Shown piece after piece: positions 28,869 to 38,572 of a stretch of 64,000 nucleotides of DNA. Both the position numbers and the translations under genes were made by a program. The DNA is from a virus (Duplodnaviria; Caudoviricetes). Under the pieces are notes generated by a model. That model was not told the origin of the DNA. It saw only the letters and a program-made list of their open reading frames with translations, and did no database searches. Position 1 is the first letter of the stretch. Every line of letters begins with the position of its first letter. The stretch lies in IMG/VR virus record IMGVR_UViG_3300028588_000015, positions 64,001-128,000 of that record; one strand, written 5' to 3'.

Positions 28869-30491
28869 ATGAATACCATGCACCAGTACTACGACCTCAT
28901 CCGGAAAGTCATCACCGAAGGTAACATCCGTACCGACCGCACCAACACCGGTACCATTTCGTTATTCGGCCCGCAAATCGAATTCAACCTCGCCGACGGC
29001 TTCCCGCTCGACCCCAGCCGCCAAGTGTTCCTGCGCGGCGATCTGGAAGAACTCTTCTGGATGCTGCGTGGCTCGACTAACAATAACGAACTGACGGCCA
29101 AGAACGTCAACATCTGGACCCAGTGGGCAATCCGCCAAGAGCACGTAGAATACACCCAAGCCGAGCGTCTTGCCATGCTTCGCGAGAAGTTCATGCAAGA
29201 CACCGGCGATGGCGCCGCTGGCCAGACGGTTTATTTGTCAACGATGGCCGAAGCGATCGATATCGACAAGATGCTCGACGGTCACGGTATTCCGAAGGAA
29301 AAATACGCCAAGGAGCAGTTGGCCATGCTCTTCCAGAAGCTAGTGGAAAAGAACGGTTCCAAGGAAATTGCTCTATCCCACTACGACGCGATGTTCAAAG
29401 GCGGTGTGAGCCAAGAGCAGTTCAACACCATCATGAAGAACTACGGCATCCCCGGCGCCCCGAAGATCGGCGCCCTCGGTCCCATTTATGGCGAGCAGTG
29501 GTGTAAGTGGCCTGACCCAGAGAAAGACGAGACCAAGTTCTTTTCAGTACCAGAGCGCGTCCAGATGGCCGAAGATTATCTGGCCAGCGGCGCGGCTGAA
29601 AAGTTCACGCAGGCAGACTTGGACAGCGTCAAGGACCAGTACCAACAATACCTCGATGAGAAAAGTAATGGCGCCACTGGCTCGACGATGGAAGAACTGC
29701 TGCACGATGACATCGATACTTGGGGTATCCCCAACAAGGTCACGCGACGTACCACCCACAACCAAATCGCCAAGCTGATCGAGGACCTAAAGAAGCGACC
29801 CAATTCGCGGCGTCACATTGTCTCGACCTGGAACGTACCCTACCTGCCGGACGAATCGCTGTCGCCCCAGCAGAACATCATGCGTGGTAAAATGGCACTG
29901 GCGCCATGTCACACCCTCTTCCAGTATTACGTGGAAGGACGCGCGTCCATGGAAATGTGTAAGGAACTTACGACAGAGCAACTGGACGAGTACATGCAAT
30001 ATTGCAGAGAAAACGAGCTAGAAGTTCATGCTTTCCAATCGGATCAGCGCGGGTTTATCGACGATCCGAAGTACTGGGAAGTAATTTTCAATTTCGACAA
30101 GAAGAAGTTGGTCAATGACTGGTTCAAAGAACGTGGCATCAAAACCCAGAAGCTGTCCTGCAAGTTGTACCAGCGTTCGTGCGATCTCCTCGTCGGTGGC
30201 GCCTTTAACATTGCCGCCTATGCTGCACAAACCATGATGGTCGCCCAGTGCGTCGACATGGTCCCGGGCCGGTTCATCCATACATTCGGCGACGTCCACA
30301 TCTACAAGGACCACATGTTGCCTAACTCGGATGGCGACTCTGTGTTCACGCAGTTGGAACGTGAAGTGCGCGCGATGCCGGTCCTCTTGATTAACCCGGA
30401 AGTGAAAGACATCTTCGCCTTCAAGTACGAAGACTTCAAGTTGACCGATTATAACCCCCACAAAAAGATCAACTACAAAGTCGCGGTTTAA
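28869..30491 (+). CDS. thyA: thymidylate synthase with large helical insertions (540 aa)
   Basis: RTDRTNTGT, EELFW.LRG, NIW.QWA, GPIYG.QW, SRRHIVSTWN, catalytic LAPCH, LYQRSCDL..G..FNIAAY, FGDVHIYKDH. Confidence 0.95.
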   Translation: MNTMHQYYDLIRKVITEGNIRTDRTNTGTISLFGPQIEFNLADGFPLDPSRQVFLRGDLEELFWMLRGSTNNNELTAKNVNIWTQWAIRQEHVEYTQAERLAMLREKFMQDTGDGAAGQTVYLSTMAEAIDIDKMLDGHGIPKEKYAKEQLAMLFQKLVEKNGSKEIALSHYDAMFKGGVSQEQFNTIMKNYGIPGAPKIGALGPIYGEQWCKWPDPEKDETKFFSVPERVQMAEDYLASGAAEKFTQADLDSVKDQYQQYLDEKSNGATGSTMEELLHDDIDTWGIPNKVTRRTTHNQIAKLIEDLKKRPNSRRHIVSTWNVPYLPDESLSPQQNIMRGKMALAPCHTLFQYYVEGRASMEMCKELTTEQLDEYMQYCRENELEVHAFQSDQRGFIDDPKYWEVIFNFDKKKLVNDWFKERGIKTQKLSCKLYQRSCDLLVGGAFNIAAYAAQTMMVAQCVDMVPGRFIHTFGDVHIYKDHMLPNSDGDSVFTQLEREVRAMPVLLINPEVKDIFAFKYEDFKLTDYNPHKKINYKVAV

Positions 30492-36321: not shown

Positions 36322-37080
36322 ATGGAAAAGAAGAAGGTTCCTTTGCTGTTGTTCTCGGGCGGTCTCGATTCGTCCTACATGTTGCAAACGTATCTGGAAA
36401 AGGGTGACGTTGAAACACTTTACGTCAAAGGAGCACAGCATCCAGACAAAGTCACGCTCGAATTGCGGGCTCGCACGCGCATCATTGCCGAACTGGAAAA
36501 GAAGACCGGCAATAGGGTTCTCAAGGACCGTGTCGTTAATCTCCACGATTTGTTCGAAGGCGACATGCCTGACCGTGCTTTTGTTCAACCCATCACCTGG
36601 ATCACCGGTGCGCTCCAAGTATCGAACGGAGAGAAGCATGCTCACCTTGCTATTGGCTATGTCAGTGGCGACCAAGTTTCTTCCGAAATTCCGTTCATAC
36701 ACGCTGCATGGGAAAACATACAGCACTTCACGAAGCAAAATACTATCCCGGTTGAGTTTCCATTGAAGGTCACCACCAAGCTGATGATCCTCGATAACAT
36801 CTGGCCTGAAGTGGTTCAGCACGTCTGGGTCTGTGAAATGCCCGAGCGGCGCGGTGACCGTATCGACGGCGTGGGTAGTAAAAAAAGACCAAAATCATGC
36901 GAATGGTGCGCAGCATGTCTTACACAGGCTGGCACCTTGGCGATGTGGAAACAGAAACACGGTGAGCCATACAGCCATAGATTCATCGCGCGGCTGCGTT
37001 GCAATAAGTTAAGAGAAGAAGATGCGTTAAAACGAGTACTACTGAAAGAAACTATCCCTCCAAGAGAAAATTCAAGATGA
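36322..37080 (+). CDS. QueC-like PP-loop ATP pyrophosphatase
   Basis: LLFSGGLDSS PP-loop, IGY..GD, FPL...K..I, and a four-Cys Zn site (WVC...C..C..C), in QueC order. Confidence 0.8.
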   Translation: MEKKKVPLLLFSGGLDSSYMLQTYLEKGDVETLYVKGAQHPDKVTLELRARTRIIAELEKKTGNRVLKDRVVNLHDLFEGDMPDRAFVQPITWITGALQVSNGEKHAHLAIGYVSGDQVSSEIPFIHAAWENIQHFTKQNTIPVEFPLKVTTKLMILDNIWPEVVQHVWVCEMPERRGDRIDGVGSKKRPKSCEWCAACLTQAGTLAMWKQKHGEPYSHRFIARLRCNKLREEDALKRVLLKETIPPRENSR

Positions 37081-37403
37081 AAATCAAACGTTTCGATATC
37101 CCTATCAAAATCTTCGTCACCCGTTTCTTCACGCCCTATCCCAAGAAAACAGTCGAACGTGAGCGCTCGACCGTCGAGACCCGAGAAGGTCGAATACGGG
37201 CACCGAAAGACATCGAAGACGAACTGATCAAGCTCCTCGCCGACGCCAAGGCATCCAATCTCGTGATTACGGTGACCCAACAGTCCGTGTTCCCGCCGGC
37301 GATGGGCCGCATCCAAGATCACATCGTGATTCGCGAGTCATATGAAGTTGCGCGCATGATCATGGAGCGCAAAGACTTCAACCAAGACAAGGAACAAGAG
37401 TGA
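37077..37403 (+). CDS. hypothetical protein (108 aa)
   Basis: ATGA overlap with the QueC-like gene; high GC3. Confidence 0.65.
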   Translation: MKIKRFDIPIKIFVTRFFTPYPKKTVERERSTVETREGRIRAPKDIEDELIKLLADAKASNLVITVTQQSVFPPAMGRIQDHIVIRESYEVARMIMERKDFNQDKEQE

Positions 37404-37404
37404 T

Positions 37405-37818
37405 ATGGACGATTCCTTGATTGTGCGTGAAATCTTCGCCCACCGCGTCGACGATCACGTGTCGCCGCTCAAGATCGAGTGCCTTGGGGTTGCGGCACAG
37501 GGCGGCGCACAGAACTATTACCGGATCACCGGTTTTAATTACGCAGCCGACGGCAAAACGGTCAATGCCCTGCCAATCTCTTTTCAGATTGGCAACCCCG
37601 AGGTGTTGGGCGTCAACGGTGTGACCATGGAAGCACTGCTGGCGGTGGTCATTGACCGCCTGTCAGGATTGCAAAAAGGGATGTACCCGTGTAGCGAAAA
37701 CAATATGGCTTTGGGGCATCTCGAAGCCAGCATGACTTACCTGCACGCACGGTCGCGCCGTATTCAACAGACGCTGTTTGAAATTGAAGCCATGCCTGAA
37801 CTGCCAGAAAAGAATTGA
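37405..37818 (+). CDS. Tad1-like anti-defence sponge protein
   Basis: GGA..Y.I...I.FQ.G....NGV..E.LL..V.DRL...Q.G.Y...EN..AL.HLE.....L..R matches the recalled Tad1 pattern (GPGGAYHEY..., [52 protein letters not shown]). Confidence 0.75.
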   Translation: MDDSLIVREIFAHRVDDHVSPLKIECLGVAAQGGAQNYYRITGFNYAADGKTVNALPISFQIGNPEVLGVNGVTMEALLAVVIDRLSGLQKGMYPCSENNMALGHLEASMTYLHARSRRIQQTLFEIEAMPELPEKN

Positions 37819-37924: not shown

Positions 37925-38528
37925 CTATCTGATGATCCGTGAAAACCGGAGCCACGTGCTGAGCACTGTGCGAGGTGTCACCGTATCCAGCGGTGTGGTA
38001 CGTGGTTGGGATAATACCCCATGAAACCCGAGGGCTCCAGAAGTTGTTCTGGGATTGCTTCTGCCGGTTGACAGACCCTTCACGGAGTCTAACAACTGAG
38101 TGTGTGTGCCTCTGGTCATAGAACGTGACGTTTTTGGGTTACGGTACGTCGCATTTTCCTTTCCTAGGAAAAGATACCATGCAAGCTTCCAACTTGTGAA
38201 AACCGTACGGCCAAACTTTCTGGGTGGAACCAGTCATGTTTGGCAAGTTGTCCACATTCCCGTGGCGGCCCTCCCTTGGGCAGCGGACAGCGGGAAAGAG
38301 CATATTACCCCGGCCCGTGTGGAGTGTGGGTGGTTGGTGCCGCGGCCTGCGGCCAGTGCTCTGTGTGCAGCCTGTAACACCTTTCTCGTGTTGGCTGAAA
38401 ACAGCCGGCCTCTTTGGAACCCGCCAAAGATGATTCGCTCGATATTGGGATACCGACGGGATGTCGGGGTCGGGGGAATGCGTGTGAGGGTGTTACGGGA
38501 TGTACAGTGTTTTCATGGATCGTGATAG
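37925..38528 (+). ncRNA. candidate large ornate non-coding RNA (~600 nt)
   Basis: End-pairing helix 37932-37946/38509-38523 (15 bp, two GU), an 8-bp long-range pseudoknot 37961-68/38354-61, and more than 12 further stems. No credible long ORF; own terminator. Confidence 0.7.
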
Positions 38529-38545: not shown

Positions 38546-38572
38546 AGTCACCCTTCGGGGTGACTTTTTTCC
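38546..38572 (+). terminator. intrinsic terminator closing the candidate ncRNA
   Basis: AGTCACCC-TTCG-GGGTGACT-TTTTT. Confidence 0.9.

Follow-up and report, generated by a model that had tools for sequence, protein, structure and literature searches.

The locus considered here raises the question of whether a Tad1-family protein that lacks part of the contacts known to hold the ligand of its relatives would still act as an immune-signal sponge, and for which messenger. The gene lies in a stretch of 64,000 nucleotides (hereafter the window), corresponding to positions 64,001 to 128,000 of the IMG/VR virus record IMGVR_UViG_3300028588_000015 (Duplodnaviria; Caudoviricetes). A first-pass annotation, made from the sequence alone, had described its product as a Tad1-like sponge with a divergent C-terminus and possibly an altered ligand specificity. 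Sponge proteins are practical tools for the discovery of immune messengers, and published surveys indicate that specificity shifts within sponge families.

The gene and its genomic setting

The gene is a single open reading frame (ORF) belonging to a conserved run of three genes (Table 1). The first gene of the run, the 3′ end of which overlaps the start of the second by 4 nt, encodes a QueC-like protein matching phrog_1550 (1.6e-26, PHROG); against the Pfam QueC model it scored 19.7 bits, under the cut-off. The second is an orphan gene, predicted from the sequence to be translationally coupled to the Tad1 gene. Every large ORF of the window is on the + strand. The window is part of a 225.5-kb IMG/VR contig, estimated to be 85% complete, that also encodes a chimallin homologue, related to the phiKZ nuclear-shell protein gp54 (E 1.1e-17). 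Therefore, nucleus-forming jumbo phage is a fair description of the source, and the jumbo-phage setting assumed in the first-pass annotation is borne out. The copy studied here is the only Tad1-family gene found in this genome, in which no Tad2-like gene was found either. No cultured phage matched the region by megablast, and a scan for promoters and terminators gave no score above those of shuffled sequences.

Several observations concern the surroundings of the gene. The contigs of two metatranscriptome runs from leaf litter are confined to a gene-free interval behind it; the Tad1 gene itself has no coverage in these contigs, which says nothing about its expression. Further downstream, a hairpin with a T-run overlaps the TTG that is listed as the start of the following ORF, whose true start is probably an ATG located further downstream. 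The thymidylate synthase gene of the window encodes a protein of about twice the usual length, in which insertions break the Pfam match into pieces; neither an intein nor an endonuclease domain could be recognized in these insertions.

Table 1. Position of the features discussed, in window coordinates unless a contig is named, and correspondence of the ligand-binding residues with those of CbTad1
Feature	Position	Strand	Remarks
Thymidylate synthase gene	28869-30491	+	540 aa
ORF of 546 aa	34623-36263	+	phrog_8902
QueC-like gene (252 aa)	36322..37080	+	First gene of the conserved three-gene run
Orphan gene (108 aa)	37077..37403	+	Stop 37401-37403, 1 nt before the Tad1 ATG
Lid-less Tad1-family protein (P0001, 137 aa)	37405..37818	+	ATG 37405, stop 37816-37818, single ORF
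L89 (CbTad1 F82, adenine-stacking Phe)	37669..37671	+	Changed
Putative adenine/phosphate clamp codons, last helix (N99, R116, R119)	37699..37761	+	From alignment columns
N99 (CbTad1 N92)	37699-37701	+	Kept; N in 135/137 relatives
R116 (CbTad1 R109)	37750-37752	+	Kept; R in 136/137 relatives
R119 (CbTad1 R113)	37759-37761	+	Kept, one residue nearer R116; R in 125/137
Variant C-terminal tail, I120 to N137	37762..37815	+	Replaces the R-G-V-E-G lid; from alignment and AlphaFold2 model
R85 (CbTad1 R78)			Kept
Y94 (CbTad1 F87)			Kept, conservative
G63 (CbTad1 G55)			Kept
N37 (CbTad1 H29, linkage-reading His)			Changed
P65 or N64 (CbTad1 R57)			Changed; Arg specific to CbTad1 in any case
CbTad1 G120, N122			No counterpart in the tail
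S97 (CbTad1 R90, CmTad1 R88)			Changed; cyclic-trinucleotide site
G104 (CbTad1 T97, CmTad1 T95)			Changed; cyclic-trinucleotide site
Gene-free interval behind the Tad1 gene	38130-38491		Covered by metatranscriptome contigs
Hairpin with T-run	38546-38565		Overlaps a listed TTG start
Orphan, L006	L006:3663-3983
Orphan, L018	L018:3677-4000
Orphan, L015	L015:3510-3893
Orphan, L019	L019:2501-2791
Orphan, L020	L020:1357-1671
Tad1 site, present	L018:3979-4377		399 bases
Tad1 site, absent	L019:2755-2786		Orphan kept
P0094, fusion gene	L015:4001-5230		409 aa, complete
Tad2-like gene	L015:5275-5913		Next gene after the fusion
DHH/DHHA1-like gene	L015:1568-2440		Upstream of the fusion; weak match
FLC9 gp131	L002:2377-3393		338 aa, annotated as hypothetical

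Membership of the Tad1 family

The assignment to Tad1 proposed in the first-pass annotation is confirmed by sequence, by profile and by predicted fold, and all the motifs on which it relied occur in the ORF (GGAQNYYRI, ISFQIG and NGVTMEALLAVVIDRLSGLQKGMYPCSENNMALGHLE). Using phmmer against the PDB sequences, the best match is phiKZ gp184 (8y6v_I; E 2.7e-11, 31% identity over 124 residues), followed by the Tad1 chains 8kbb, 8kbh, 7uav and 8kbe (E 1.4e-6 to 7e-6). Beyond gp184, this single-sequence search finds only Tad1 chains, those of Clostridium botulinum and CmTad1. CbTad1, the Thoeris anti-defence 1 protein of a Clostridium botulinum prophage, is also retrieved from the PDB by a profile of 137 relatives (3.6e-27), together with gp184 (1.9e-28), CmTad1 (5.5e-24) and no other entries. 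The protein matches PHROG 2428 at 2.7e-18, and among 1.84 billion cluster representatives searched exhaustively with HMMER, 2229 relatives reach E <= 0.001. A precomputed annotation assigns it the Pfam domain PF24729 (Acb2_Tad1_hairpin). Despite this, neither a local Pfam scan of the protein nor a search of its own genome with PF24729 gave a match, a miss that is treated here as a matter of sensitivity or model version.

An AlphaFold2 model built on the 137-relative alignment (pLDDT 94.7, pTM 0.82) starts with a four-stranded beta-sheet (E7-10, E23-27, E38-48 and E51-60) and continues with helices H75-91 and H97-129. The predicted chain has therefore the arrangement of Tad1, in which an N-terminal four-stranded antiparallel sheet precedes two long helices. 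The comparison with Tad1 structures by Foldseek, suggested in the first-pass annotation, gave 20 leading matches, all of them Tad1 at probability 1.00, the next match being at E 0.24. Using VIA-align, the model superimposes on 116/118 residues of 7uav_A with a Z of 11.6; the best row other than Tad1 reaches a Z of 7.4 and covers the hairpin of helices in the model and nothing else. CbTad1 (7UAV, 7UAW, 8SMD, 8KBE-8KBH) and CmTad1 (8KBB-8KBD) thus appear to have the same fold (TM 0.75-0.79) at about 25% sequence identity. Membership of the Tad1 family, as judged from predicted structure and alignment, is as well established as is possible by computation.

The nucleotide pocket

In CbTad1, eleven contacts to 1''-2' gcADPR have been described (10.1101/2022.05.03.490397). 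The adenine is stacked by F82 and R109 and its base is read by N92, whereas the diphosphate is held by R57, R109, R113 and the backbone of G120. F87 supports the ribose, and the hydroxyls where the two riboses are joined are contacted by H29, G55, R78 and N122. The lid is formed by residues 116-122, which close and supply contacts through G120 and N122 (10.1101/2022.05.03.490397). The same pocket also accommodates cyclic dinucleotides, and cyclic trinucleotides occupy a separate site at the three-fold interface of the hexamer, involving R90 and T97 (Li et al., 10.1101/2023.11.15.567273). Among Tad1 homologues, 12% were found to be substituted in the site for cyclic dinucleotides and gcADPR, and 6% in that for trinucleotides (Li et al., 10.1101/2023.11.15.567273).

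These residues were mapped onto the window protein by means of a HMMER alignment and of the 137-row alignment (Table 1). All 22 nearly invariant columns of the latter are retained, with N99, R116, R119 and R85 among the residues kept, and the single fully invariant column, G72, is present as well. The counterparts of N92, R109 and R113 would form a clamp common to both proteins, accompanied by those of R78, F87 and G55. On the other side of the balance, about five of the eleven CbTad1 contacts are changed or missing (H29, F82, R57, G120 and N122). The column of L89 contains Phe in 121/137 sequences and Leu in 11/137; the clade to which the window protein belongs reads LLLL, with Leu in every member. 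Concerning the trinucleotide site, the R90 position is occupied by Arg in 21/137 nearest relatives and the T97 position by Thr in 27/137, so that this site appears to vary among these relatives. The residues of the CmTad1 hexamer interface, mapped by hand from the alignment, are mostly different in the window protein. One member of the clade, L006, has Ser at the R85 position. As far as the alignment can tell, the clamp for the adenine nucleotide survives, whereas three other elements are lost, namely the lid, the trinucleotide site and the half of the pocket that reads the linkage.

The C-terminal tail and a lid-less clade

The CbTad1 chain terminates with R109-V-E-D-R113-I-E-R-N-V-L-G120-T-N122, and the consensus tail of the 137-row alignment is R-T-x-x-R-x-x-R-G-V-E-G-T. 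About two thirds of the relatives (88/137) combine the R-x-x-x-R spacing with a lid motif of the G-x-x-G type. The window protein reads R116-S-R-R119-I-Q-Q-T-L-F-E-I-E-A-M-P-E-L-P-E-K-N, without lid motif, and this tail is modelled by AlphaFold2 as a straight extension of helix alpha2 up to residue 129. Thus, where CbTad1 has its lid (R116-N-V-L-G120-T-N122), the window protein would have a helical tail, in addition to L89, N37, S97, G104 and closer arginines. The shortened R-x-x-R spacing is found in 14/137 nearest relatives, 12 of which lack the lid motif. The divergence of the C-terminus pointed out in the first-pass annotation is therefore real, and it falls on the CbTad1 lid residues 116-122. 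However, the tail is not peculiar to this gene but marks a small conserved clade.

In a maximum-likelihood tree, calculated on 137 columns for 142 rows and leaving most forks without resolution, the protein groups with P0008, P0009/L006, P0015 and P0094 (SH-aLRT 87). Cultured jumbo phages (phiKZ, phiHQ, FLC9) have versions that branch elsewhere and keep a G-x-E-G lid. The clade can be recognized by L89, by Y-P-C before E-N, by G-F-x-Y and by L-H-x-R-[ST]-x-R-[IM]. Orthologues sharing this signature and the gene order are carried by IMGVR_UViG_3300011871_000002 (L006), by a 224-kb Logan contig (L018) and by L020. They are 40-58% identical to the window protein and differ in tail length, the proteins having 123 to 148 aa; the longest, P0008 as completed from L020, has a helix-like tail. 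At this distance, N99, R116 and R119 are still kept together with a tail motif R-[IM]-[QE]-[QE]-T-[LF], an indication that the pocket end of the helix has remained under selection. Between the window protein and its L006 orthologue, segment 113-126 is 79% identical as compared to 41% overall, and only helix alpha1 is better conserved. Such a difference suggests a new constraint on the replacement tail rather than drift. Scans of viral and metagenome contigs with the single protein and with the orphan family added only L006 to the clade, and a second metagenome scan returned canonical-type relatives only.

Proposed function

Considering these features, the reading that we hold to be the probable one, with some reserve, is that of a stand-alone Tad1-family sponge with an altered pocket, made in the cell by a nucleus-forming jumbo phage and not packaged. 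The protein would adopt the Tad1 fold, as modelled, and would pair head-to-tail by analogy with its solved relatives, which would place a nucleotide pocket at each end of the dimer. This pocket would grip an adenine nucleotide, with N99 reading the base, R116 stacking on it and binding phosphate, R119 binding phosphate, and R85, Y94 and the G63 backbone holding ribose. The parts that enclose and specify gcADPR would be missing, namely the His (N37), the stacking Phe (L89) and the Gly and Asn contacts of the lid, replaced by the extended helix. The Arg/Thr pair of the trinucleotide site would be missing too (S97, G104), and binding of cyclic trinucleotides would be lost with it. Because the clamp is kept while the gcADPR-specific parts and the trinucleotide site are not, sequence comparison designates the sequestration of an adenine-containing immune messenger, of the Thoeris or CBASS type, as the most likely job. 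With this messenger sequestered, effectors of abortive infection against which the phage nucleus is no barrier would be stopped, and the infection would be protected. Since contact residues have changed, an altered ligand specificity may be expected, as the first-pass annotation had it: the pocket is probably more open and its preference probably differs from that of CbTad1. A conserved Tad1 lineage having an adenine clamp but a rebuilt linkage-reading half may reasonably be considered as a candidate for a new specificity.

Some of the data count against a sponge. About five of eleven contacts are changed, the hexamer-interface residues are mostly different, and the Ser of L006 affects a ribose-holding position. 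A published survey of 84 sponges included 20 Tad1 homologues, for which it describes inhibition of CBASS and of type I Thoeris, individual sponges being highly specific. In the same survey, about a quarter of the tested sponge homologues were inactive against seven systems (PMC12393519), which also weighs on this side.

It is tempting to go one step further and to imagine that the lid-less clade as a whole has switched to another messenger, such as His-ADPR, N7-cADPR or an undescribed signal from its probable soil hosts, the tail and L89/N37 building the pocket. We regard this possibility as tentative, and rather doubtful as it stands. If true, the protein could serve as a bait to capture and identify the signal, as Tad1 and MoTad2 did for gcADPR and His-ADPR.

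In the opposite direction, the protein could be an ordinary Tad1, binding 1''-3' and 1''-2' gcADPR and perhaps cyclic dinucleotides as CbTad1 or SBS Tad1 do, with a tail devoid of functional effect. The retention of the N99, R116 and R119 clamp plus R85, Y94 and G63 would fit such a view. Moreover, published tests on Tad1 homologues from distant branches found gcADPR binding in every case, and the missing R57 is not conserved in the family anyway. Nevertheless, G120 and N122 of the lid and H29, which coordinate the ribose-ribose linkage, are all absent, and a tail without effect accords poorly with its conservation within the clade. An ordinary Tad1 is therefore considered unlikely.

Jumbo-phage relatives and fusion forms

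A sponge in a jumbo phage would have a precedent. phiKZ gp184 is a minor capsid protein (PMC11297242). A 2025 preprint names it Tad1 and describes it as non-essential; according to this work, the N-terminus is lodged in the capsid, and the C-terminal part is freed by the head protease and then injected (10.1101/2025.11.23.690004). According to a 2026 review, the phiKZ Tad1 blocks CBASS and Thoeris and is the sole anti-defence protein described in jumbo phages (PMC13282480). A jumbo-phage Tad1 is thus not new, since gp184 has already been published. Because gp184 is regarded as a working Tad1 in a phage that forms a nucleus, it counts for the sponge reading of the window protein, of which it is the nearest solved sequence and with which it shares this kind of phage. 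The two proteins differ in several respects. gp184 has 230 aa, about 100 of which form an N-terminal extension that is located in the capsid and cleaved by the head protease, whereas the window protein has 137 aa and no such extension, its Tad1 domain beginning at about residue 7 and the 108-aa ORF upstream being unrelated to the gp184 N-terminus. In addition, gp184 keeps a G-T-E-G lid motif that the window protein lacks, and it belongs to another branch of the tree and to a different gene neighbourhood.

The Tad1 family is already known, as are its jumbo-phage members and homologues with a variant pocket. The lid-less clade with its conserved substitute tail, the fixed orphan neighbour and an unfused, non-packaged form in a phage encoding chimallin were not found described in the literature.

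Fusions of the domain are encountered inside and outside the clade. P0094, a complete gene found on four contigs, starts with a lid-less Tad1 domain and ends with a part resembling the phiKZ major capsid family (PhiKZ_MCP-like, PF25620, 3e-16). On L015, the gene following this fusion is Tad2-like (PF11195, E 3.9e-4, below the cut-off) and a weakly matching DHH/DHHA1-like gene lies upstream. The three genes may together form an anti-signalling island, and the proximity of Tad2-like and DHH/DHHA1-like genes counts for a sponge. In the cultured Burkholderia jumbo phage FLC9, gp131 carries the Tad1 domain at its C-terminal end, its N-terminal 160 residues being a cyclophilin-type peptidyl-prolyl isomerase (PF00160, 2.5e-44).

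These fusions have a bearing on a further explanation, in which the Tad1 fold would have been re-used for a job other than signal trapping, for instance as a protein-binding or virion-associated module. The fusion of a clade member to a PhiKZ_MCP-like domain, and the fact that the nearest solved relative is a capsid protein, could point to such a role. So could the fusion in FLC9, as well as the loss of about half of the ligand contacts and of the lid. However, the residues most strictly kept are precisely those binding the nucleotide, gp184 is packaged and yet still regarded as a working sponge, and the window protein has no extension able to anchor it in a capsid. A re-used fold is thus held to be quite improbable, and an altered sponge remains the preferred reading.

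Two observations may be added on the gene located before the three-gene run. The product of the 546-aa ORF is 29% identical to that of a 318-aa gene preceding the orphan-Tad1 pair of L015. At the matching position, L018 encodes a 675-aa protein with a weak PhiKZ_MCP-like match.

The orphan neighbour and the presence of the Tad1 gene

A member of one orphan family (about 96-127 aa) lies directly upstream of every lid-less Tad1 gene of the clade, overlapping it or 1 nt away (Table 2).

Table 2. Gene order at the Tad1 site
Sequence	Length	Genes in order
Window	225.5 kb	QueC-like, orphan of about 108 aa, lid-less Tad1
L006	218.7 kb	QueC-like, orphan, lid-less Tad1
L018	224 kb	QueC-like, orphan, lid-less Tad1
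L020	2.5 kb	QueC-like, orphan, lid-less Tad1
L004, L005	short	Orphan, Tad1
L015	186 kb	Orphan, Tad1 (fusion form); no QueC-like gene

The members of this family have diverged to 28-56% identity. The orphan of the window has no match in Pfam, PHROG, PADLOC, NCBIfam or the PDB. Its AlphaFold2 model is unusable (pLDDT 46.5) and its ESM Atlas model is poor, with no usable structural look-alikes. Prediction of a complex between the orphan and the Tad1-like protein scored 0.00, which gives no answer either way.

Two possible origins were rejected. A weak BLAST match (E 0.09) prompted the idea that the orphan is a degenerate Tad1 half, but hhalign of the orphan family against the Tad1 family gave a probability of 0.1%. 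The 108-aa and 137-aa ORFs do not represent a split or frameshifted fusion of the gp184 type, as no similarity to the N-termini of gp184 or FLC9 was found and the two frames are related differently in the window (+1) and in L006 (-1), which is incompatible with a conserved frameshift joining them.

It may also be envisaged that the Tad1-like protein acts only together with the orphan as an adaptor, a regulator or a second binding subunit, a view that overlaps with the other readings; the tight adjacency of the genes (1 nt gap or 4-nt overlap) and the recurrence of the pair, despite the divergence of the orphan, in six sequences independent of one another, of which four are contigs of 186-225 kb and two are short, would favour it, but the orphan has no recognisable fold or family and at least can stand alone, as L019 has it without a Tad1 gene, so that an obligate two-protein unit appears very improbable. 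More generally, the linked orphan and the repeated Tad1 fusions (capsid anchor, MCP-like, cyclophilin) suggest that jumbo phages deliver or regulate sponges in several ways.

The case of L019 bears on the function of the Tad1 gene itself. On this contig, the QueC-like gene and the orphan are arranged as in L006, L018 and L020. L018 and L019, which are sister jumbo-phage contigs, show about 76% DNA identity on both flanks of the Tad1 site, and the gene is cleanly absent from the latter (Table 1). The orphan therefore does not strictly need the Tad1 gene. Such a clean presence and absence is as expected of an accessory counter-defence gene, and the two contigs constitute a natural knockout pair for the Tad1 gene, offering a natural comparison.
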